Below are positions 20,924 to 39,923 of a DNA stretch of 64,000 nucleotides, one piece after another (position 1 is the stretch's first letter; the number at the start of each line of letters is the position of its first letter). The translations under genes were made by a program, and so were the position numbers. Below the pieces are notes generated by a model, which ran no database searches, was not told the DNA's origin, and worked only from the letters and a program-made list of their open reading frames with translations. Location of the stretch: positions 4,811 to 68,810 of the forward strand of contig NZ_RAVX01000011.1 of NCBI RefSeq assembly GCF_003611605.1. The letters are read 5' to 3'. The DNA comes from Corallococcus sp. AB011P. Lineage in GTDB: Bacteria; Myxococcota; Myxococcia; Myxococcales; Myxococcaceae.

Positions 20924-20971
20924 GGGGCTCCTGGCCTGGAGGGGACGTGTGGGAAAGGATGGGTGCCTAGC

Positions 20972-21958
20972 ATGACGACTCCAGGGCAGGAACATCGGGG
21001 CGCGCTTCACGGGGAGGACGTCCGGCACGGGGAGGCTCCATTCGAGGGCGGCCGGGTGCGGCTGTCGCTGCGGGTGGAGGCGGAAACGCGCACGGTGTTG
21101 GCGGCGGCGTGGGAGGCGTCGGTGGAAGCCTCGGGGCATCCGCTGGCGGCGTGCCTGGAGTCGCTGTGCCAGAACGCGGTGGGCATGGGAGTGGACGTGT
21201 TCCTGCGCTTCGACGACTTCCACCTGCGTTCGGGGTGTCCGGAGGGGTTGGAGGCGACGGAGGAGGCGGGGCTGGCGGTGCGGGTGTTCCGGCTGGCCTT
21301 CAGCCAGTTCCACCCCCGGGCCACGGGGCCCGCGTACCTGTCGAGCGGGCTGGTGCTGGCGAAGCTGCCCCGGGGCGCGCGTCCAGAGTGGGAGGAGCCG
21401 GGGTTCTACTTCGCGCACTACTACCGGGAGGAGCTGTGGCCCGCGGCGGTAGCGGAGGCGCGCCGGGGTGGCGTGCTGGGGCCTCGAGCGGCGTGTGCGT
21501 ACATCGATGCGCTGCTGGCGAAGGCCGATGACACGGTGGAGCTGGACTGGCCCGTGGAGCAGGGCACGGCGACCTGGGACTGGCTGACGCGTGTGTGCCT
21601 GCCGTCGGTGACGGGGGGCGTGGAGCGGACGCGGCAGCTGCTGGAAGGTGGGTACGGGGGCGCGAGCGGTACGGGGAGCTTCCCCTTCGGGCACCTGGAT
21701 GGAGGGCCGTGGCATCCGCCGGAGGGGCTGCCGGAGCCCGAGGACGTGGGGCACGCGGAGTTCATCCTCGGCGATTTGGAGCACCTGCTGCCGGAGCTTC
21801 CGAAGGACGGCGTGCTGCTGGCCGCGCCCCGGTGGATGGCGGTGGGACAGACGCGGGACTCCCCTGCCCTGCGCCGGGCGGACATCTCCAGTGAGGAGGC
21901 CGGGGGCTTCGGCCTGTTCAACGCGGCGGCGCACGACGTGGGTGAAGACGATGATTGA
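20972..21958 (+). CDS. Hypothetical protein
   Basis: ATG 20972 (MTTPGQEHRG...). Strong G+C3 bias. It is divergent from the MnmC-like gene with a 48-bp spacer. Confidence 0.45.
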   Translation: MTTPGQEHRGALHGEDVRHGEAPFEGGRVRLSLRVEAETRTVLAAAWEASVEASGHPLAACLESLCQNAVGMGVDVFLRFDDFHLRSGCPEGLEATEEAGLAVRVFRLAFSQFHPRATGPAYLSSGLVLAKLPRGARPEWEEPGFYFAHYYREELWPAAVAEARRGGVLGPRAACAYIDALLAKADDTVELDWPVEQGTATWDWLTRVCLPSVTGGVERTRQLLEGGYGGASGTGSFPFGHLDGGPWHPPEGLPEPEDVGHAEFILGDLEHLLPELPKDGVLLAAPRWMAVGQTRDSPALRRADISSEEAGGFGLFNAAAHDVGEDDD

Positions 21959-22691
21959 TGGGCGCCTGCTGGGTGGGCTGGTGGCCCTGCTCTGTCTGTC
22001 TTGCGCTTCGGGTCCAAGGCAGTACGCGCAGACGTCCGACTCCGCGACCAGTGGATGTCTGCGCAATCCCACCTGCTACACGCAGCCGGGGGATGAAGCG
22101 TTCCTGCCGTGGGTGGACAAGGCCGCCAGGGCCGCGGCCACGGCAGGCGCCACGATGAAGCTCCTGGAGGCGGCGGACGTCGCCCGCATCGAGCACCTGT
22201 TGGTGGAGTGCGCGAAGGAAGCGGACTTCATCGTCAATGAGCGTGAGTACGGCCAGGGGAGATACCCGGACGACAAGGAGTGCTTGCGAGTGGTCGGCCA
22301 TGACAAGAACGGCGACCCCATCCGACGGCAGGCCGAGCTTGGGACGATGAAGCATGACGTTGCTTTCGCATGCGTGCGGCGTGAAATCCTCCGGCTCTTC
22401 CCTGAAAATGTCTCGATTGAGCCGCGCTATAGCGGCGACGCCAGCGCTGGCGGCCCTACCTTGACGAGAATCTGGACGGGCTCGAACAAGCCCGACATCG
22501 TCCTTCACGCCACAGGACAGGCTCTCCAGATTCAATGCATCTTCGACTTCAAGTTTCCTTGCACCCTCTCAGGCAAAAGCCAGCCGCTCGCCAGTTCTGA
22601 GACCCGGAAGCAAATGGCCCGCTACAAGGATTTGGGCGGAAAATGCAAGCCGGCCATCATCACTCCTCAGTTTGGAGTCTTGCGTGAGTAA
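21951..22691 (+). CDS. Secreted/lipoprotein-like protein with PD-(D/E)xK nuclease-like C-terminal motif; low-GC islet
   Basis: ATG 21951 overlaps the previous stop by 8 nt. Signal peptide MIDGRLLGGLVALLCLSCAS. C-terminal ...KPDIVLHATGQALQIQCIFDFKFPC (PD ... D-x-K spacing). Local GC is about 56%. Confidence 0.5.
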   Translation: MIDGRLLGGLVALLCLSCASGPRQYAQTSDSATSGCLRNPTCYTQPGDEAFLPWVDKAARAAATAGATMKLLEAADVARIEHLLVECAKEADFIVNEREYGQGRYPDDKECLRVVGHDKNGDPIRRQAELGTMKHDVAFACVRREILRLFPENVSIEPRYSGDASAGGPTLTRIWTGSNKPDIVLHATGQALQIQCIFDFKFPCTLSGKSQPLASSETRKQMARYKDLGGKCKPAIITPQFGVLRE

Positions 22692-22743
22692 GTACCCCTC
22701 ATTCCACCACTTCGCCGATTCACTCCCCCGAGTCCAACTGGTC

Positions 22744-23688
22744 ATGCGCATTGCATTCTACTTGCCGCACGACCATGCAGTCGTAGCGCCAATCCTCCAA
22801 CGCGCCCTCGACATCTATCGTGAGTTCATCGAACTCAGTGGCGGGGCCCTGACCGTCGGAGAGGATTCCGACATCATTGAGGATGCCTTCCCGCTTCAAT
22901 CCGAGTTCTGGGAGGAAGTTCAACGCCACCTCACCAGGCCTCGATTTGAATACCTGGACGACATGGACCCGGACTCCTATTGGTTCCGGAGATTGACCAA
23001 GAGGAACTACGACACATGGGTTCTCCTCAAGGGAGGACATTCGGAACCGGATGGCTACGAATTCAGTTTCGAGTCTCGGCTCCCATGGCGAGGACCCTCT
23101 TCCGAGCACAGCGTTCTGAGCGTGCAGGTCCCGATTGGTTTCCTGGAGACTCAAGGTCCCGAGAAGGCCCTTGAACTGGCACGGTCGCTGGCGGAGCTCC
23201 TTCCGTTCTCCACGGGCCATGCCGGGCTGTCGCTCTCATTCCCGCGCGGGAGGTCGAAACTCCTTCCCCTTCTCAAGGAGCAGCTGGCCCGGCATCCCGG
23301 CTGGCACGTTCCGCCTACGCTGGCGTGGGGCTTGGGACCGTGGATCGACGACGTGCACTGGCTGAACTTCCTGGGCCCACCCCTCCTTGAAACCGTTGGC
23401 GGTCTCCAGGCGCTCCGCTCGCACCTGAGCCATCCGGAGACCCGCGTCCAGGAGCTCACCGGAGGCCGTGCGCTGATCAGCCTGGGCCCCGCGCCGCTCG
23501 CGGGGGACACGAAGCTGGGTGAGACACTGCCGGCGTATCGCGAGCTGGCCCGGTTCCTGGAGCCCTGGCTCCTGCCCCTCCCCCACGTCAACACCTGGGA
23601 CGGCTACACCGACGAGGAGGCACGTCTCTGGTGGCGCCGCTTCCTGGAGGCCCCTCCCAAGAAGACATCCGACCCACACGACGGGTAA
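22744..23688 (+). CDS. Putative cognate immunity-like cytoplasmic protein (hypothetical), low-GC islet
   Basis: ATG 22744 (alternative TTG 22672 overlapping the upstream gene). No signal peptide. Low GC. It sits immediately downstream of the secreted nuclease-like gene. Confidence 0.45.
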
Positions 23689-23817
23689 CCGCGCCGGATT
23701 TTTTCACGCATTGCCCCAGCACCCGGCGCACTGATAATCCGCAACCCGGAGTGCTTACGTCGAGCGGCGGGCCGACGGTCGTGTTCGCGCCAGCCCTCGC
23801 GGATCGGGGTTTCATCG

Positions 23818-26800
23818 ATGCGGTCACAACGCGCTGTCTGGAGCAGGCTCCTGTTGTTCGCCGCGAGCCTGGGCCTTCTTTCCTGCGGCGGGAACGAGCG
23901 CCCGGCGGCATCCGAGGGCATCCGCAACACGCCCGCCCGTCTCGCGGCGGCGCCAGCCTGGTACAACACCGCTTCCATGGCGACGGCCCGCGCGCGCCAC
24001 GCGGCCGTCCTGCTCCCCGACGGGAGGCTGCTCGTCGTCAATGGCGTCAACTCCGGCTTCGTGGGCACGGCGGAGACCTACGATCCCGCCACCAACACCT
24101 GGAGCTCCGCGGGCCCCACCAGCCTCACGGGCAACATCACCCTGGCCGTGCTCCTGCCCACGGGCAGGGTGCTGGTGCTGACCGATGGCTCGCAGGGGGG
24201 ACGCCTCTATGATCCCGCCAGCAACACCTGGACCTCCACGGGCAACATGTCCTCGACCCGCTCCTTCCCCACGGCCACGCTGCTGGGCACGGGACAGGTC
24301 CTGATCGCGGGCGGCACCGGCGGTGGCGGCGTCCGGCTCACCACCGCGGAGCTCTACGACCCCGCGACCAACACCTTCACCGCCACGGGCACCATGTCCA
24401 CGGGCCGCAGCCAGCACGTGTCGACACGGCTGCGCGACGGACGCGTGCTCGCGGTGAGCGGCTTCAGCGGCAGCGACGAGGTGCCCGGCGCCGACCTCTA
24501 CGATCCGGCCACCGGCACCTGGTCCGCCGCCGCCCCCCCGCTGGTCGCCCGTCACTACGCCACGAGCACCCTGCTCCCCGACGGCCGCGTGCTCCTCGCG
24601 GGCGGACAGACCGCTGGCGGTGCGACGGCCCAGTCGGAGCTCTATGACCCGGCAGCCAACACCTGGACCGCGACCGGCAGCCTCGCGTTCCCGCGAGCCA
24701 TCCACCGGGCCACGTTGCTGCCGGATGGCCGCGTCCTCGTCACCGGCGGCGCGGTCGACGGGAACCCGGCGCAGACCGAGTCCGAAATCTTTGATCCCGC
24801 CACCGGCACCTGGACCTCCGGCGGCACGCTGAACGTCGCCCGTGCGAACCACACCGCGACGCTGCTGCCTTCGGGCAAGGTGCTCGTCACGGGCGGCGAA
24901 TCCAACAACCCCGCCCAGACCTTCTTCGCGCAGACGGAGGTCTACGACCCCGCCAGGAGCCAGTGGTCTCCCGCTGGCGCCATGGGCACGCCCCGCACCG
25001 ACGCCGCGGTGGCGCTGCTGCCCTCGGGCCAGGTGCTCGTCGCGGGCGGCCGCGGCCAATTCACCTCGTCGGCCGCGGCGGAGCTGTACGACCGCGCGAG
25101 CAACGCGTGGACCGCCCTGCCCGACCTCCTCACGCCGCGCGAGCGCGGCACCGCGACCGTGCTGCGTTCGGGGCAGGTCCTGATCGCGGGCGGCCGCAAC
25201 GTCAACACCTCCACGCCCTCCACGGAGCGCTTCGACCCCACCACCAACACCTGGCTGGCCACCGCGGACCTGCTGAGCCCGCGCCACCTGCACACCGCCA
25301 CGCTCCTGCCGGATGGCCGGGTGCTCGTCGTCGGCGGTCAGCGCAACACCACCGTGCTGGACACCGTGGAGATCTACGCGCCCGACACGAACACGTGGAC
25401 CCCCGCGGCCCCGCTCTCCATGCCGCGCGGCGGACACCGCGCCGTGCTGCTCCAGGACGGCCGGGTGCTCGTCGTGGGCGGACGCACCGCCGGCGGCGCG
25501 GAGCTGGCCTCCGCGGAGCTCTACAACCCCACCAACGACGCCTGGGCCCCGGCGGCGAACCTCGCGGCCGCCCGCGAAGAGCTGACGCTGACGCTCTTGC
25601 CGTCGGGCCAGGTGCTCGCGGCAGGCGGTAAGACGGTCGCCACGGTGCTCACGTCCGCGGAGCTCTACACGCCCGGCACCAACACCTGGGCGTCCGTGGA
25701 CAACGATCTCACGCAGCCGCGCTGGCTCCACTCCGCCACGCTGATGCCTTCCGGCAAGGTGCTGGTCGCGGGCGGAATCACCACGACTGGCGAATACGCC
25801 AAGACGGCGGAGGTCTACGACCCCCTCCTCCGCGCGTGGACCAGCGTCGAGGACCCCGCCGCGGAGGGAGGCCTGTTCAGCGCCTCCCTGCCCTCGGGCG
25901 AGGTCCTGCTGGCGGGGGGGCAGGAGCCCACCAACGCGCAGCTGTATGACGACACCCGGGCCCTCCCCGCCTGGCGGCCGACGGTGACGAACCCGGCGAC
26001 CCTCGTCGCCGCCTGCCCCACCGTCGTGGAGGGCCTGCGCTTCCGGGGCATCTCCGGCGGAAGCAGCGGCAACACCGCGGACTCGCCCACCGACTTCCCC
26101 CTGGTGCGCCTGCGGGCCGCCGAGGGTGGACGCCTCTGGACGCTCCCCAGCAGCAACACCTCGGCCACCCGCGCGACGGTGACCGTGCCCGCCGACGCGC
26201 CGCTGGGGACCTACGCGCTCACGGTCTTCGCCAACGCCATCCCCGGCGGCCGCATGGTGACGGTCGTCCCCAACCAGCCTCCGACGGCGGCGGACCAGAC
26301 GGTCACCGTCCAGAAGGACACGCCGCTGGAGCTCGCCCTGGCCGGCACGGATCCGGACCCCGGCCAGGTGTTGACCTGGACGGTCGTCACCCAGCCGCAG
26401 CACGGCACGCTCGGCACCAGCGCGCAGGGGAACCTCGAGTACACGCCCGAGGCCGGCTTCGTGGGCACGGACAGCTTCACCTACCGGGTCCGTGACTGCG
26501 CCGACGACAGCAACGTCGCGACCGTGACCCTCAACGTGACGGAGGACGTGGTCACCCGCACCCTCACCTGCCCCGCGAACGTCGTCGTGGAGGCGACGGA
26601 TCCGGACGGCGCGCTCGTGACCTACGACCCCGCGGTCCTGGATCCGGCGGGAGGGCTCCCGGTGAGCTACACGCAGCCGTCGGGCGCGCTGTTCCCCATT
26701 GGCACCACGACGGTCACCGCGACCTCCACGGGCCTCACCTGTTCGTTCCAGGTGACGGTGCGGGACACCACGGCGCCCACGCTGACCTGCCCCGAGTCCC

Positions 26801-27120
26801 GGAGCGCGGCCCCTGGCGAGACGGTCACGTTCGAGCCCACGGCCACGGACGCGGTGACGGCCTCGCCGGTGGTGACGTCCTCCCCCGCTTCCGGCAGCCC
26901 CTTCCCGGCAGGCGCCACGACGGTCACCGTCACCGCCACGGATGACGCGGGCAACACCGCGCAGTGCACGTTCCAGGTCCGGGTCCAGGCGCAGGTCGTG
27001 GAGATCGCCGGCGGTGGCTGCAATAGCACCGGTGGCACCACGTCCGCGCTGGCGCTCCTCGCCGCGCTCGCGGCCTGGGGGAACTCGCGCCGCCGTCAGA
27101 ACCCGGCCCGGGGGAACTGA
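23818..27120 (+). CDS. Kelch-repeat (galactose-oxidase-like beta-propeller) lipoprotein with Ig-like/HYR domains and MYXO-CTERM sorting tail
   Basis: Lipobox LGLLSCGG. At least 13 repeats of ...TAELYDPATNTW...LLPDGRVLV(A/V)GG. HYR-like TCPANVVVEATDPDGALVTYDP / TCPESRSAAPGETVTFEP. C-terminal GGGCNSTGG...ALLAALAAW..RRRQ. Confidence 0.8.
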   Translation: MRSQRAVWSRLLLFAASLGLLSCGGNERPAASEGIRNTPARLAAAPAWYNTASMATARARHAAVLLPDGRLLVVNGVNSGFVGTAETYDPATNTWSSAGPTSLTGNITLAVLLPTGRVLVLTDGSQGGRLYDPASNTWTSTGNMSSTRSFPTATLLGTGQVLIAGGTGGGGVRLTTAELYDPATNTFTATGTMSTGRSQHVSTRLRDGRVLAVSGFSGSDEVPGADLYDPATGTWSAAAPPLVARHYATSTLLPDGRVLLAGGQTAGGATAQSELYDPAANTWTATGSLAFPRAIHRATLLPDGRVLVTGGAVDGNPAQTESEIFDPATGTWTSGGTLNVARANHTATLLPSGKVLVTGGESNNPAQTFFAQTEVYDPARSQWSPAGAMGTPRTDAAVALLPSGQVLVAGGRGQFTSSAAAELYDRASNAWTALPDLLTPRERGTATVLRSGQVLIAGGRNVNTSTPSTERFDPTTNTWLATADLLSPRHLHTATLLPDGRVLVVGGQRNTTVLDTVEIYAPDTNTWTPAAPLSMPRGGHRAVLLQDGRVLVVGGRTAGGAELASAELYNPTNDAWAPAANLAAAREELTLTLLPSGQVLAAGGKTVATVLTSAELYTPGTNTWASVDNDLTQPRWLHSATLMPSGKVLVAGGITTTGEYAKTAEVYDPLLRAWTSVEDPAAEGGLFSASLPSGEVLLAGGQEPTNAQLYDDTRALPAWRPTVTNPATLVAACPTVVEGLRFRGISGGSSGNTADSPTDFPLVRLRAAEGGRLWTLPSSNTSATRATVTVPADAPLGTYALTVFANAIPGGRMVTVVPNQPPTAADQTVTVQKDTPLELALAGTDPDPGQVLTWTVVTQPQHGTLGTSAQGNLEYTPEAGFVGTDSFTYRVRDCADDSNVATVTLNVTEDVVTRTLTCPANVVVEATDPDGALVTYDPAVLDPAGGLPVSYTQPSGALFPIGTTTVTATSTGLTCSFQVTVRDTTAPTLTCPESRSAAPGETVTFEPTATDAVTASPVVTSSPASGSPFPAGATTVTVTATDDAGNTAQCTFQVRVQAQVVEIAGGGCNSTGGTTSALALLAALAAWGNSRRRQNPARGN

Positions 27121-35896: not shown

Positions 35897-37456
35897 ATGG
35901 TTCTGTCCATGATGTGGGGACTGTTGGCGTCGCTGTTCGCGGCCTTGTGGTTCCGGTCCCGCTCTCACGTTCACGAGTTGCAGGAGCGGTTCAAGCCCAT
36001 CGTGGACATTGAAGCCGAGAAGAGACGAATCACAGAAGAGATCGCACAAACACAACGGGCCGCCACAAAGGCCCTTGAAGCTGAGCGCCATCGGGCAGCC
36101 CAGGAATTGGCTGAAGCCCGTGGCATCGCTGCCAAGGAGCGCATCGACGAACAGACGCGAGTGCTCGCCCAGCTTGCTCGAGAAAAGGAGTCTTCCGCGA
36201 AGGCCATCGCCGAGGAGAAGAAGCAAGCGGCCTCGGAATGTCACCGCATGCGGGAAGAGGCTTCACGAGCAACGGTGGCCGCCGCACGGTCTGTGACTGA
36301 AGCGGAAGAACAGCGTCAGAAGCTGCTCTTGGAGCAACGGGAGCTGAAAGCCACCATCGTTCGGTTACGCGAAGAGCTTCGTCCCCTGGATGAAGAAGCA
36401 ATTCTCCTCTCCACCGGCTTCTACAAGTCGGTTTACGCCTTCTCCTCCGTCGAGGAGTACGAGCGCCGCCTCGATGCGCTTCGAGAGACGCAGAAGTCAA
36501 TGCTGCAGAACAAGGTGGCGGCGACCTGCTCTCTGGAGTGGGAGGTCAATGGCAGTAAGGCCGAGGGCAGAAAGCAAACGGAGCGTACGCTGAAGCTGAT
36601 GCTCCGCGCCTTCAACGGCGAAGCCGATGCCTGCGTCGCGAAAGTGACCTACAAAAACATCAAGACCATGGAAGCTCGCATCGAAAAGGCAGCGGATGCG
36701 ATCAATGCGTTGACGAAGATCCAGCAATGCACCATCGCGAGCAAGTACGTTGCCCTCAAGCTGGACGAACTGCGCCTGGCTCATGAATACGCCGAGAGGG
36801 TCCAGCAGGAGCGCGACGAGCAGAAGCGCATTCGGGAGCAGATGCGCGAGGAAGAAGCGGCGCAGCGCGAACTTGAGAAGGCGAAGCTTGAGGCGGAGCG
36901 AGAGGCGAAGCGAGACGCGGAGGCCCTGGCGAAGGCGAAAGCCGACTACGAAAGAGCCAAGGGCTCCGAGCAGCAAAAGCTTCTGGAGCGCATCGCGGAA
37001 CTGGAGCGCCGCGTCGCAGAAGACCTGGAAAAACAGAGAGCCATCTCCCAGGCCCAGCTCACGCGGACGGGGCACGTCTACGTCATCTCCAACATCGGCT
37101 CCTTTGGAGAGGGCGTGTTCAAGATGGGAATGACCCGGCGGCTGGTGCCCCAGGACCGCATCGACGAGCTGGGAGACGCGTCGGTGCCCTTCGAGTTCGA
37201 CGTCCACGCCATCATCCGGACCTCGGATGCCCCGGCACTTGAAAGCGCACTGCACAAGGCCTTCGCGAACCGGCGCGTCAACCGCATCAACGAGCGCAAG
37301 GAGTTCTTCCGCGTCGGCCTGGATGAGATCGCGGAGGCGGTCCGCAAGCATCACGGTGAGTTTGAATTGACCCGGATTGCTGAAGCTGCGGAATACCGGA
37401 AGACGTTGGCACTCCAAGAGGAGGAGCGCCTCACGCATGCTGAACGGGCGGCGTAG
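35897..37456 (+). CDS. Membrane-anchored coiled-coil protein with DUF4041-like region and C-terminal T5orf172 (GIY-YIG-like, MUG113) domain
   Basis: N-terminal TM helix MVLSMMWGLLASLFAALWF; long E/R/K coiled coil. The C-terminus GHVYVISNIGSFGEGVFKMGMTRRLVPQDRIDELGDASVPFEFDVHAII...KEFFRV matches the T5orf172 pattern. Local GC is about 58%. Confidence 0.65.
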   Translation: MVLSMMWGLLASLFAALWFRSRSHVHELQERFKPIVDIEAEKRRITEEIAQTQRAATKALEAERHRAAQELAEARGIAAKERIDEQTRVLAQLAREKESSAKAIAEEKKQAASECHRMREEASRATVAAARSVTEAEEQRQKLLLEQRELKATIVRLREELRPLDEEAILLSTGFYKSVYAFSSVEEYERRLDALRETQKSMLQNKVAATCSLEWEVNGSKAEGRKQTERTLKLMLRAFNGEADACVAKVTYKNIKTMEARIEKAADAINALTKIQQCTIASKYVALKLDELRLAHEYAERVQQERDEQKRIREQMREEEAAQRELEKAKLEAEREAKRDAEALAKAKADYERAKGSEQQKLLERIAELERRVAEDLEKQRAISQAQLTRTGHVYVISNIGSFGEGVFKMGMTRRLVPQDRIDELGDASVPFEFDVHAIIRTSDAPALESALHKAFANRRVNRINERKEFFRVGLDEIAEAVRKHHGEFELTRIAEAAEYRKTLALQEEERLTHAERAA

Positions 37457-37481
37457 GCTCTGAACCGCGTGTGCCTCGGTT

Positions 37482-39239
37482 ATGGTTGCGTCATCAATGG
37501 GCTCTGAGAAACTGCTTCCCTCGTTGGATGCGCTTCGTAGTGCGGTGAAAGCCGCCACACGCAAAAAGAAGATCGCATTCCTTGTCGGCTCTCCGCTCTC
37601 GATGCAAGAGACACCTGATGCGCCACAAGTCCCGGGCGTCACAGCAATGCTCCAATTCATTCGGAAGCGGGTTCCTTCCGAGCACCTAGAGCAGTTCGAT
37701 GCGGGACTGAAAGTAGACAGAGAGAATACTTACCAGTGGGCAATGAAGTTCATTCAGGACCGTGATAGCCGATCGGTCGCCAATGAGGTCATTCGAGAAG
37801 CGGTCCTACGAGCCCGGTTGCATCCTGATGCAGATCAGGGGCTTGAGGACGTCCAAATCGATACCGACTTCAGCGGATGGGCACTCCCCCCTGCAACGCT
37901 ACATCTCGGCGGATTGCTTGCTGAACATCCTGGACGTTTCGGTCCAGTCATGACGACCAATTTCGATCCGCTCCTTCCTGCTTCGGTAAAAGCTGCGGGC
38001 GGGGAGGTCCTTCGCACTGTCGTCGACCGCGACGAGCCTTTCAGCCAAGCAAAGCTCTCTGCCTCCAACTTCTCACACCTCGTCTACCTCCATGGCTATT
38101 GGCTGGAGGCGGAGACGCTCCACACCTCGATTGAACTCGCACGCGAGCGCCCCCGCGTCGCAGCCGACATTACCCATGTCTTAACCAGCCACACGCTCGT
38201 TGTCGTGGGATATGGAGGCTGGGATGATATCTTCACTCAGACTCTTGCTGCCATTAGCGCAGACCGCCATAAGCAGGTTGACATTCTGTGGGCCTTTTTC
38301 GACAAAGAGACCAGTGTCGTCCAGGCTCGCAACAAACATTTCCTTGACAGAGTCAGGGAACTGACGGGACGGAATCAACTCCGCCTCTATGGGGGCATCA
38401 ACTGCCATGAACTCTTCGCGAGGCTCCGTGAAGACTTCGGCACATCTGGCACCGCCACAACTCAGCCCCCAAACAAGGCACCCAAACAAGGCAAGGTTGA
38501 ACCGCAGCGGCCAGCACCAATTGCAACAAGCGCCAAAGCCCCTGAGCCGACGACCTCGACGCCTCACAGCACTACGAGCGCGCCTACGCCAACGCCCTCC
38601 GTGCCAAGCATCCCCGTCTCCCCATCCGTTCCGAAGACGGACGCCACGGCCAGTCCTCCGAAATCAACATCCAGCAGAATCCTGCCTTTTGCGGCTGCCG
38701 CGCTGTTTGCTGGCGGCATGGCTGCCGTATGGCCATCCCCCAGCAAAGGCGTGAGCAATGACGTCATCGCCATCCCACCTCCGCGCAATCTGAGACCTGT
38801 CCAGCCGCAGCCCCCGACGACGACCGCTCCGGCCCCGGTACCCGCAAGCACGCTCAGAAGCGTTCGCCAACAACACCAGGTTGTGGCAGCTTCGGACGCC
38901 GAACGCGGAACTCGCGTCTCACAACTTCCCCGGGGGCGCTACGCATTTGTCCCGATGAGCGCCGTTCCCACCTACAGTGCGGACACCACCATCTACGGCC
39001 CCATCCAGGAGGGAATCGAGCTTCACCGCGCGCTAGCGGATGGATCCTTGTATCTCGTGGGCTATGCGGATGCCCCAACCATGGCGGCCCTCGGATATCC
39101 GAAACCTGCGCCCATCGTCATTACCCCCACACCCGGTGGTAGAAGGACGCAGGTCGCGAGCATTCCGGTATCTCGGATGACCACCGCTGAAGTGCGCATG
39201 GATAAAGGCACCCGCGTGTTGGTTCTTCACCTCAACTAA
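37482..39239 (+). CDS. SIR2-like (SIR2_2) domain protein with Pro/Thr-rich linker, single TM helix and C-terminal extracytoplasmic domain
   Basis: IAFLVGSPLS, VMTTNFDPLL, VYLHGYW and VVVGYGGWDD match the DHS-like SIR2_2 fold. TM helix ILPFAAAALFAGGMAAVW. It lies 25 nt after the previous gene. Confidence 0.65.
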   Translation: MVASSMGSEKLLPSLDALRSAVKAATRKKKIAFLVGSPLSMQETPDAPQVPGVTAMLQFIRKRVPSEHLEQFDAGLKVDRENTYQWAMKFIQDRDSRSVANEVIREAVLRARLHPDADQGLEDVQIDTDFSGWALPPATLHLGGLLAEHPGRFGPVMTTNFDPLLPASVKAAGGEVLRTVVDRDEPFSQAKLSASNFSHLVYLHGYWLEAETLHTSIELARERPRVAADITHVLTSHTLVVVGYGGWDDIFTQTLAAISADRHKQVDILWAFFDKETSVVQARNKHFLDRVRELTGRNQLRLYGGINCHELFARLREDFGTSGTATTQPPNKAPKQGKVEPQRPAPIATSAKAPEPTTSTPHSTTSAPTPTPSVPSIPVSPSVPKTDATASPPKSTSSRILPFAAAALFAGGMAAVWPSPSKGVSNDVIAIPPPRNLRPVQPQPPTTTAPAPVPASTLRSVRQQHQVVAASDAERGTRVSQLPRGRYAFVPMSAVPTYSADTTIYGPIQEGIELHRALADGSLYLVGYADAPTMAALGYPKPAPIVITPTPGGRRTQVASIPVSRMTTAEVRMDKGTRVLVLHLN

Positions 39240-39245
39240 CAAACA

Positions 39246-39923
39246 ATGAAACTCAACAACAGAATCCTTTCCCTTGGGTTGATGTCACTCCTCTTGCTTG
39301 CGGGTTGTGGGCCCGAGGACTTCAACCCGGGCCCCTCCAATCCCGGCGTGGAAGATCCGCCGCCACTCGACGAAATTTGCACTGCCGGAAACTGCGCGGG
39401 TTGCTGTGATCCGACCACGAACAAATGCGTCCAGGTTCGCACCAACGACGCATGCGGTGCCAATGGCGTTACCTGCACGAAGTGCGCGACCGGGACCATC
39501 TGCCACCCATCACAGCAGCAGTGCTACACGCCTACCATTCGCACGAAGATCCGGGCCCTGCGTGCCACGATTTCTTCGCATGATCCCGCGGATGACAGCG
39601 ACTGGGATGTCGACGGCTCACCACCGGACGCCTTGATTGAACTGATCTGCCCCAACGCCCAGCCTGCGGTTTCCAGGTCGGAAGAGATTGAGAGCTTCAC
39701 CCCCAACTGGACGACAGGGGGATGTGATGTTCTCAGCACGGATCTGCTTTCCATGCCTGTCCAGTTCAACGTTCTCGATGTCGACGTCATCGTCGATGAC
39801 AAGGTTGCGTCAGCCCAATACCAGTTCACCCAAGCCGACATCGAACGTGGAGTCGTAGAATTGACGGTCTCCAATACACTGACCTCAGTGGTCTTCCAGC
39901 TCACCACCTACTACGCCGAATAG
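39246..39923 (+). CDS. Cys-rich lipoprotein (low-GC copy of a two-member family in this window)
   Basis: Lipobox LLLAGCGPE. Cys cluster GNCAGCCDPTTNKCVQV...CGANGVTCTKCATGTICHPSQQQCY. DGSPPD, TTGGCDV. It is a paralog of 47149..47769. It lies 6 nt after the SIR2 gene. Confidence 0.6.
   Translation: MKLNNRILSLGLMSLLLLAGCGPEDFNPGPSNPGVEDPPPLDEICTAGNCAGCCDPTTNKCVQVRTNDACGANGVTCTKCATGTICHPSQQQCYTPTIRTKIRALRATISSHDPADDSDWDVDGSPPDALIELICPNAQPAVSRSEEIESFTPNWTTGGCDVLSTDLLSMPVQFNVLDVDVIVDDKVASAQYQFTQADIERGVVELTVSNTLTSVVFQLTTYYAE

Follow-up and report, generated by a model that had tools for sequence, protein, structure and literature searches.

A short putative lipoprotein nuclease and its TsiV-family partner: a probable polymorphic toxin/immunity module in Corallococcus sp. 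AB011P

Using a combination of approaches (homologue and profile searches, alignments, structure modelling and comparison of loci between genomes), we analysed two adjacent genes, hereafter gene 1 and gene 2, in a 64-kb window of Corallococcus sp. AB011P (the window being the whole stretch of DNA that was studied). We consider it likely that they constitute a two-gene polymorphic toxin/immunity module, in which gene 1 encodes an outer-membrane lipoprotein nuclease delivered by outer-membrane exchange (OME), and gene 2 encodes an immunity protein of the TsiV family. For its core, namely that the two genes are a toxin/immunity pair, our confidence is high, and we infer that the product of gene 2 neutralises that of gene 1. 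Most likely, the pair is used by myxobacteria against close relatives. The initial annotation of this DNA had already suggested a secreted lipoprotein nuclease with a cytoplasmic partner, and this proposal is borne out by the TsiV identity of gene 2, the catalytic motif and modelled fold of gene 1, the near-obligate linkage of the two genes (80 of 87 copies), the modularity of the toxin domain and the hypervariability of an allelic cassette spanning both genes; together with the gene structure and the lipobox, these are direct observations. The features of the locus are as follows.

21951..22691, + strand: toxin gene (gene 1), encoding a 246-amino-acid predicted lipoprotein with a C-terminal PD-(D/E)xK nuclease domain (open reading frame, homologues, PADLOC PDC-M20A match at E = 5.5e-68)
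21951..22004, + strand: predicted type II signal peptide and lipobox L16-S17-C18, of which C18 aligns with the lipobox cysteine of the family
22020..22112, + strand: N-terminal linker motif YAQxxDSATSGCLRNPxCYTQPGxEAxLPW (residues 24-54, two cysteines), conserved across genera
22170..22688, + strand: PD-(D/E)xK nuclease toxin domain, residues ~74-246
22400..23350, + strand: hypervariable low-GC allelic cassette, comprising toxin residues ~151-246 and approximately the N-terminal 220 residues of the immunity protein (nucleotide identity, minimum of GC and of third-codon-position GC)
22491..22496, + strand: P181-D182, forming the "PD" part of the catalytic core where a β-strand starts (invariant in both alignments; strand 183-187 of the model)
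22545..22553, + strand: D199-F200-K201, forming the "(D/E)xK" part of this core where the following strand ends (D199 invariant, K201 at least 90% conserved; strand 190-200 of the model)
22611..22625, + strand: Q221-x-x-x-Y225 motif, in the helix that follows the DxK strand
22684..22691, + strand: junction GTGAGTAA, where the immunity start codon GTG 22684 overlaps the toxin stop codon, over 8 nucleotides (nt)
22684..23688, + strand: immunity gene (gene 2), encoding a 334-amino-acid (aa) predicted cytoplasmic TsiV/DUF3396 protein (Pfam PF11876; PADLOC PDC-M20B match at E = 2.2e-108)

The product of gene 2 matches the Pfam TsiV model PF11876 at E = 1.3e-39 (136.7-136.9 bits for a cut-off of 25, over profile positions 58-271 of 271), and it also shows a weak match to Pseudomonas aeruginosa PA0821 (7drg). 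Proteins of this TsiV/DUF3396 family have been shown experimentally to be the immunity partners of TseV effectors, which are PD-(D/E)xK/VRR-Nuc nucleases, and the crystal structure of TseV3:TsiV3 shows the immunity protein reaching into the pocket that presumably binds DNA (PMC9635880). The 334-aa product has no hydrophobic leader and is identical to WP_120565541.1, which NCBI names "type VI immunity family protein". Overlaps between the toxin stop and the immunity start, of 4 nt (ATGA or GTGA), 8 nt or 1 nt, occur in about 68 of 76 homologous toxin-immunity pairs, and gene 1 and gene 2 are therefore regarded as translationally coupled, which fits the need for a balanced production of toxin and immunity. 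The initial annotation had correctly described gene 2 as a leaderless open reading frame that possibly overlaps gene 1, and only its start codons had to be revised. ATG 22744 was rejected, as the 20 codons upstream of it are conserved as protein and the homologous codon is CTG or GCA in relatives, while TTG 22672 gave way to GTG 22684, which is favoured by the identical NCBI protein and by the overlaps found in the other pairs.

This pairing is kept in nearly all copies of the toxin gene. The 112 homologues of gene 1 all belong to the Myxococcaceae or the Archangiaceae, and a genome scan limited to one genome per species returned 202 loci, 78 of which were fetched. These 78 loci, which hold 87 toxin copies, all come from genera of the same two families (Corallococcus, Myxococcus, Pyxidicoccus, Archangium, Cystobacter, Vitiosangium and Hyalangium) or from metagenome-assembled genomes; a further homologue, from Melittangium boletus, was provided by the protein search. 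A TsiV homologue lies directly downstream of the toxin in 80 of the 87 copies, the exceptions corresponding to contig ends, split hits or a TsiV gene located upstream. In Pyxidicoccus (loci L008 and L009, 6000-7720) the order is reversed, with a TsiV homologue directly upstream of the toxin and none detected downstream. Genomes carry several copies, at least six in Archangium minus, and tandem arrays of two or three pairs are found. The sampled copies that lie outside the syntenic position adjoin housekeeping genes (AstA, polysaccharide lyase, radical-SAM enzymes, M24 peptidase and desaturase).

A profile search of 1.84 billion representative proteins returned 240 relatives, and the toxin domain (profile positions ~75-251) was found at the C-terminus of other architectures as well, which are listed below.

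Tox-PAAR-like proteins: P0202 and P0223
DUF2380 protein: P0179
696-aa secreted protein: P0165
leaderless proteins with coiled N-termini: P0212, P0220 and P0239

In every one of these cases that was examined, the next gene encodes a TsiV protein, and in the PAAR-like fusion a gene for a DUF2169 adaptor of type VI secretion systems (T6SS) is present two genes upstream. Because one and the same domain occurs behind alternative N-termini and is each time followed by TsiV, it is, as far as such comparisons can tell, a polymorphic toxin domain, this being the behaviour that defines them. Since the pairing is kept in the PAAR-like fusion, the association between toxin and TsiV is independent of the delivery route.

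The assignment of this domain as a PD-(D/E)xK nuclease, which had been proposed from the spacing of its motif, was strengthened by the alignment of 32 family members. The motif KPDIVLH...DFKF of the gene 1 product contains P181-D182 and D199, all invariant, and K201, which is conserved in at least 90% of the members. K134-H135, E81 and the four cysteines 87, 111, 141 and 204 are likewise invariant. When the alignment was extended to the PAAR-fused proteins and the other distant architectures, PD, D199, K201, F202, C204, Q221 and Y225 were still conserved. An AlphaFold2 model built on the 32-sequence alignment has a mean predicted local distance difference test score (pLDDT) of 83. From residue 71 onwards the values are mostly above 90 (the exceptions being 68 for residues 161-170 and 87 for residues 171-180), while residues 61-70 average 81 and residues 1-60 do not exceed 70. 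The modelled domain is predicted to adopt the α/β core fold of restriction endonucleases, with D182 at the opening of strand 183-187 and D199-x-K201 at the close of strand 190-200. Foldseek comparison of the model with the PDB gave no match with E < 0.01. Together with the nearest structural neighbours, the Q221-x3-Y225 motif, which we take to be the one of the RecB/Cas4-like branch, points in the model to this branch and not to VRR-Nuc. In agreement with this, gene 1 did not match the VRR_NUC Pfam model at E up to 1, none of the 32 family members did so even with the limit raised to E = 10, and VRR-Nuc proteins (TseV3, FAN1, T7 endonuclease I and TnsA) were not the closest structures.

Several variants of the toxin domain were observed. 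In P0100 (Melittangium boletus) and P0080 (Cystobacter fuscus), DFKFPC is replaced by DFYFPC, the catalytic lysine being changed to a tyrosine, and an arginine replaces the conserved cysteine located four residues before DFYFPC; both proteins, which are annotated without a leader, may be inactivated toxins. The cysteines C87, C111, C141 and C204, invariant in the lipoprotein forms, are mostly retained in the PAAR-fused forms. Because C87 and C141 are absent together from the leaderless homologues P0239 and P0256, this variation suggests that they act as a pair, in a disulfide or a metal site.

The N-terminus of the gene 1 product, which begins with MIDGRLLGGLVALLCLSCAS, carries the lipoprotein-like leader that had been noticed at the outset, and its LSC lipobox aligns with the LAGC, LAAC and QAAC lipoboxes of the family. 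Such lipoboxes are recognisable in most full-length members. The predicted lipidated cysteine (position +1) is C18, followed by an alanine at +2 (A19) and a glutamine at +7 (Q24). Across the family the +2 residue is mostly alanine, and it is a lysine in none of the 61 lipoboxes that could be scored by an automated screen. The sorting rule for the outer membrane that has been applied to the SitA toxins requires no lysine at +2 and no alanine at +7 (PMC5562445), and since the residues of the gene 1 product satisfy this rule, we predict that it is an outer-membrane lipoprotein.

Public annotations of this N-terminus differ. In RefSeq (WP_147443297.1) the gene starts 9 nt further upstream, at GTG 21942, and encodes 249 aa. 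In GenBank (RKG55870.1) it is cut to 192 aa by a start at V55, with loss of the leader, and in other Corallococcus genomes the toxin is also annotated at 170-192 aa. The long form is, by its conservation, the right one and not the 192-aa form, because the signal peptide, the lipobox cysteine and the following motif are conserved from Corallococcus to Archangium, and the GC at third codon positions (GC3) is 0.85-0.92 in this frame.

The motif that follows the lipobox (residues 24-54) has pLDDT values of 43-60 in the model and is predicted to be flexible. In the profile search, the motif of the lipoprotein form was joined to no other toxin domain. It is the sole candidate for a minimal entry or escort element, a role that it would play in place of a longer domain. 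A second cysteine-rich motif, C..D.....CCLK..P.....C, stands in place of YAQ..DSATSGCLRNP.CY in P0161, P0185, P0205, P0219 and P0164, which are metagenomic relatives forming a subgroup of secreted or lipoprotein forms with the same toxin domain.

The module occupies the same place in at least 10 Corallococcus genomes, in the gene order NmrA-like, DUF2378, MnmC-like methyltransferase, unknown 333-aa open reading frame, toxin, immunity and Kelch-repeat protein. Contrary to the initial expectation, the islet is thus not strain-specific; its alleles alone differ. Nucleotide identity to C. coralloides KYC2213 is 0.90-0.93 up to position 22399, falls to 0.67 over 22400-23350 and returns to 0.85-0.92 beyond; across the comparisons made, identity is 0.58-0.82 in this cassette versus 0.83-0.93 in the flanks. 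The cassette includes the catalytic strands and coincides with the minimum of GC and GC3. Its phylogenetic signal is incongruent, since the cassette of the window is nearest to that of C. carmarthensis (0.82) and the flanks are nearest to those of KYC2213. Synonymous divergence (dS) reaches 0.54-1.15 for the toxin and immunity genes, versus 0.09-0.45 for the flanking genes, with ratios of nonsynonymous to synonymous divergence (dN/dS) of 0.19-0.34. Because dS is high while dN/dS stays in this range, the toxin and immunity alleles are, by this measure, much older than the surrounding DNA, or have been exchanged, and have not merely undergone faster protein evolution.

In C. carmarthensis CA043D (locus L020, 7001-8358), the 5' part of the toxin gene, of about 350 nt and equivalent to 21980-22330 of the window, is gone, which leaves residues 127-245 as the sole part that aligns. 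In this strain the TsiV gene is intact, with 78% identity. At the level of sequence, such a toxin remnant next to an intact TsiV gene amounts to orphan immunity, as one expects of a conflict system.

The drop in GC that first drew attention to the locus is real, and narrower than the ~1.7 kb initially assigned to it. The whole span 21951-23712 has a GC of 0.624, compared with a window mean of 0.694, and values of 0.557-0.617 in 300-nt windows are confined to ~22250-23300, with a core of about 1 kb (22250-23250). The 1-kb window at 22301 has a GC of 0.587, for a z of -2.7; of 1260 such windows, no more than 16 fall below it. Frame-specific GC3 locates the dip in the second half of gene 1 and the first half of gene 2, and not in the entire genes, whose outer halves retain a GC3 of 0.82-0.92. 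Low GC turned out to be a trait of the family (mean of 0.64 for the toxin gene and 0.65 for the immunity gene, versus 0.70 for the flanks) and not, as could have been thought, the mark of a recent acquisition. Horizontal acquisition of recent date was ruled out as its sole cause, the homologous pairs of all genera being 5-10 GC points below their flanks. The A/T run reported to close the islet is present, as a T run at 23699-23704; it is not a recognisable terminator, no terminator-like hairpin being found ahead of it and the z-score of the fold being only -1.8.

Upstream of the pair, the open reading frame 20957-21958 (+ strand, 333 aa, high GC3), the stop codon of which overlaps the toxin start (ATGATTGA), has neither a Pfam match nor a signal peptide. 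Among the syntenic loci of Corallococcus its identity amounts to 82-93%, and it is not found beside toxin-immunity pairs elsewhere. It was rejected as a SitB-like accessory gene on these grounds, and is probably not part of the module. The gene of the MnmC-like methyltransferase (20072-~21103, minus strand) is divergent from it. Downstream of the pair, the gene 23818-27120 (+ strand) encodes an 1100-aa Kelch-repeat, Big_9 and HYR protein with a lipoprotein-like leader. This protein, too, is a rapidly evolving one, which is 65-83% identical between species and has a dN/dS of 0.46-0.61, the highest among the flanking genes. The segment 23720-23899, comprising the intergenic region and about the first 80 nt of this coding sequence, is 0.87-0.98 identical.

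The sole other low-GC stretch of the window, at 35.9-39.9 kb, is unrelated to the pair, from which it is separated by 13 kb. It extends over 35897-39923 (+ strand, GC of 0.56-0.62) and contains three co-directional open reading frames. The first one, 35897-37456, matches PADLOC PD-Lambda-1 (E = 1.5e-150) and the Pfam families DUF4041 and T5orf172; the second one, 37482-39239, has a SIR2_2 domain and weak matches to SIR2-type defence models; and the third one, 39246-39923, has no match. By its content, this stretch looks like an anti-phage defence islet.

From these observations, we propose the following mechanism. The toxin would leave the cytoplasm by the Sec pathway, receive its lipid at C18 and end up in the outer membrane. 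The likeliest route of its transfer between neighbouring myxobacteria would be TraAB-mediated OME, as is the case for SitA, a step on which our judgement is evenly balanced, and the short cysteine-containing N-terminal motif would replace the long escort domain of SitA. The C-terminal domain would operate as a metal-dependent nuclease, with D182, D199 and K201 as catalytic residues, aided by Q221/Y225 and an acidic residue of helix 1. On reaching the cytoplasm of the recipient, it would kill by cleavage of nucleic acids, so that cells devoid of the matching immunity would be poisoned. In the carriers of the cognate allele, the cytoplasmic TsiV-family protein would bind the toxin and block it, probably by occluding the DNA-binding cleft if the analogy with TseV3:TsiV3 holds. 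Specificity would reside in the C-terminal ~95 residues of the toxin and in approximately the N-terminal 220 residues of the immunity protein. The low-GC cassette that they form would undergo exchange, or persist in the form of divergent alleles, at one constant position of the Corallococcus chromosome.

Several points weigh against this proposal. Nuclease activity, toxicity, neutralisation, lipidation and outer-membrane localisation are all inferred. Gene 1 has no match in Pfam or NCBIfam, and searches of the PDB sequences by phmmer and by profile hmmsearch returned chance matches only. OME delivery leaves unexplained how so short a protein would exit the outer membrane and cross the inner one, only ~55 residues lying between the lipidated cysteine and the nuclease domain, versus the 375-500 aa of the SitA escort domains. 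The overall dN/dS of the toxin and immunity genes is below 1, and a weaker codon bias may contribute to their high dS. The locus is vertically syntenic across the genus, is flanked by housekeeping genes and, by tblastn of gene 1, is missing from the plasmid and phage collections, all of which is less typical of mobile sitAI loci. Finally, the pair already figures in PADLOC as a candidate for phage defence.

This last listing raises the possibility of an anti-phage system, in which a nuclease restrained by its TsiV-like partner would be released on infection. Both genes match the PDC-M20 models, at least one PDC-M20 instance is embedded in a BREX, DISARM or type I restriction-modification system (bioRxiv 10.1101/2024.01.29.577857), and the defence islet with PD-Lambda-1 and SIR2-like genes lies in the same window. 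The PDC systems are however predictions by their source's own statement (bioRxiv 10.1101/2024.01.29.577857), and the sampled copies of the pair adjoin housekeeping genes, not defence genes. We find the anti-phage reading very improbable because a nuclease with a lipoprotein signal would be kept away from the cytoplasm, the site of phage DNA replication, because homologues of the toxin domain occur in fusion with a T6SS PAAR-like domain beside a DUF2169 adaptor, and because TsiV is a demonstrated interbacterial immunity family. These PAAR-like relatives, together with the membership of gene 2 in a family characterised with the T6SS effectors TseV, could in turn argue for a T6SS effector with its immunity protein, which is what gene 2 is called publicly. 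Such a pair is nevertheless extremely unlikely here, given that a Sec/lipoprotein signal is unfit for the loading of gene 1 on a cytoplasmic spike, that lipoboxes occur family-wide, and that, in the window as in the loci that are syntenic or were sampled, the pair has no PAAR, VgrG, Hcp or DUF2169 gene beside it.

A weapon directed at prey or unrelated competitors deserves more credit, while still being unlikely. The toxin would be shed in outer-membrane vesicles (OMVs) or released at contact, and the immunity protein would serve only to guard its own cell from toxin that is misplaced or taken up again. OMVs have a part in myxobacterial predation, and a lipoprotein signal with outer-membrane sorting suits a vesicle cargo as well as an OME cargo; the short N-terminal region devoid of a SitA-type escort domain and the core-like status of the locus in Corallococcus also accord with it. 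Yet such a weapon does not readily account for the co-varying hypervariability of the toxin C-terminus and the immunity N-terminus, the incongruent exchange of alleles from species to species, the toxin remnants accompanied by immunity genes or the tandem arrays of diverged pairs, all of them hallmarks of within-lineage discrimination. The same variability speaks against a housekeeping nuclease, periplasmic or exposed at the surface, that would be held in check by a cytoplasmic inhibitor (as in barnase/barstar or NucA/NuiA) and would serve to scavenge extracellular DNA or in developmental lysis. The genus-conserved position, the upstream conserved open reading frame that is co-directional with the pair and overlaps it, and the overall purifying selection are in line with such a function, which we hold to be very improbable in view of the number of diverged paralogous pairs and of tandem arrays that a genome carries, the hypervariable cassette with its incongruent phylogeny, the occurrence of the domain in PAAR-like toxins and an immunity family known from conflict systems. 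A toxin/immunity module acting between myxobacteria accordingly remains our preferred explanation.

Going one step further, we suggest tentatively, leaning slightly against it, that the pair represents an unrecognised class of OME-delivered kin-discrimination toxins, with a mature lipoprotein of ~230 residues, a cysteine motif of ~35 residues for escort, a TsiV partner and ancient, exchangeable alleles at a fixed site. If this is true, the PDC-M20 "phage defence candidate" is a misassigned interbacterial toxin, TsiV immunity, otherwise known only from T6SS, is deployed along with a cognate nuclease domain by a lipoprotein route, and both the name "type VI immunity family protein" of gene 2 and the PADLOC label mislead. 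So short a toxin anchored in the outer membrane would offer a compact system for studying how nucleases delivered to the outer membrane cross the periplasm and the inner membrane, and the fixed-site cassette of Corallococcus a natural allele series for mapping toxin-immunity specificity. The analysis also exposes annotation faults, namely the 192-aa GenBank toxin without a signal peptide and a toxin domain that lies outside every Pfam model.

As regards known systems, the gene pair is already catalogued as a unit in PADLOC (PDC-M20, cassette CAS_00092), both genes matching the corresponding hidden Markov models in the same order, with the E-values given above. PDC-M20 was designated a phage-defence candidate through guilt-by-embedding, without functional test or mechanistic annotation (bioRxiv 10.1101/2024.01.29.577857), whereas the evidence gathered here for the pair points to an exported interbacterial toxin and not to an intracellular anti-phage nuclease. 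We found no paper text naming PDC-M20 in our literature search, nor any in which DUF3396 or TsiV appears together with Myxococcus, Corallococcus, myxobacteria or SitA. The PAAR-linked toxin systems of M. xanthus of the MXAN_0050 type (PMC12077131) were checked and are unrelated. Unlike the nucleases of the RecB, Cas4 and lambda-exonuclease type, with which it has no detectable sequence homology, the gene 1 product consists of a small secreted domain that stands alone, in a toxin context, and its four conserved cysteines are otherwise arranged.

With the TseV/TsiV pairs (Salmonella bongori TseV1-4/TsiV1-4 and P. aeruginosa PA0822/PA0821), the module has in common the immunity family (PF11876, DUF3396), a PD-(D/E)xK nuclease encoded directly upstream of the immunity gene and, in the remote homologues of the gene 1 toxin domain, a PAAR-like N-terminus. 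It differs from them in that gene 1 neither matches the VRR_NUC model nor has VRR-Nuc proteins as its closest structures, that it has no PAAR-like domain, and in that no T6SS gene is nearby in the window.

The SitA/SitI-like character proposed initially holds as a probable mode of action and not as a membership. SitA families are defined by an escort domain of ~375 aa, with conserved regions of 441-507 aa in SitA3 and SitA1/2, while the gene 1 product has 246 aa in total and lacks any such domain, and the C. coralloides orthologue COCOR_04790 does not figure in the published lists of SitA1/2/3 homologues. SitA4 and SitA6 are described as AHH nucleases, a description that does not fit the PD-(D/E)xK nuclease predicted here, and SitA7 of M. 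fulvus HW-1 as a non-modular "predicted DNase"; the gene 1 family could possibly be SitA7, with which it is compared by this description only. The resemblance to SitA/SitI otherwise extends to a lipoprotein with sorting residues of the outer-membrane type, a predicted C-terminal nuclease, an immunity gene that comes next after the toxin gene within one operon, the presence of several diverged loci in a genome and the same myxobacterial lineages, in which OME is an established route for outer-membrane lipoprotein nucleases (PMC5562445, PMC8546572).

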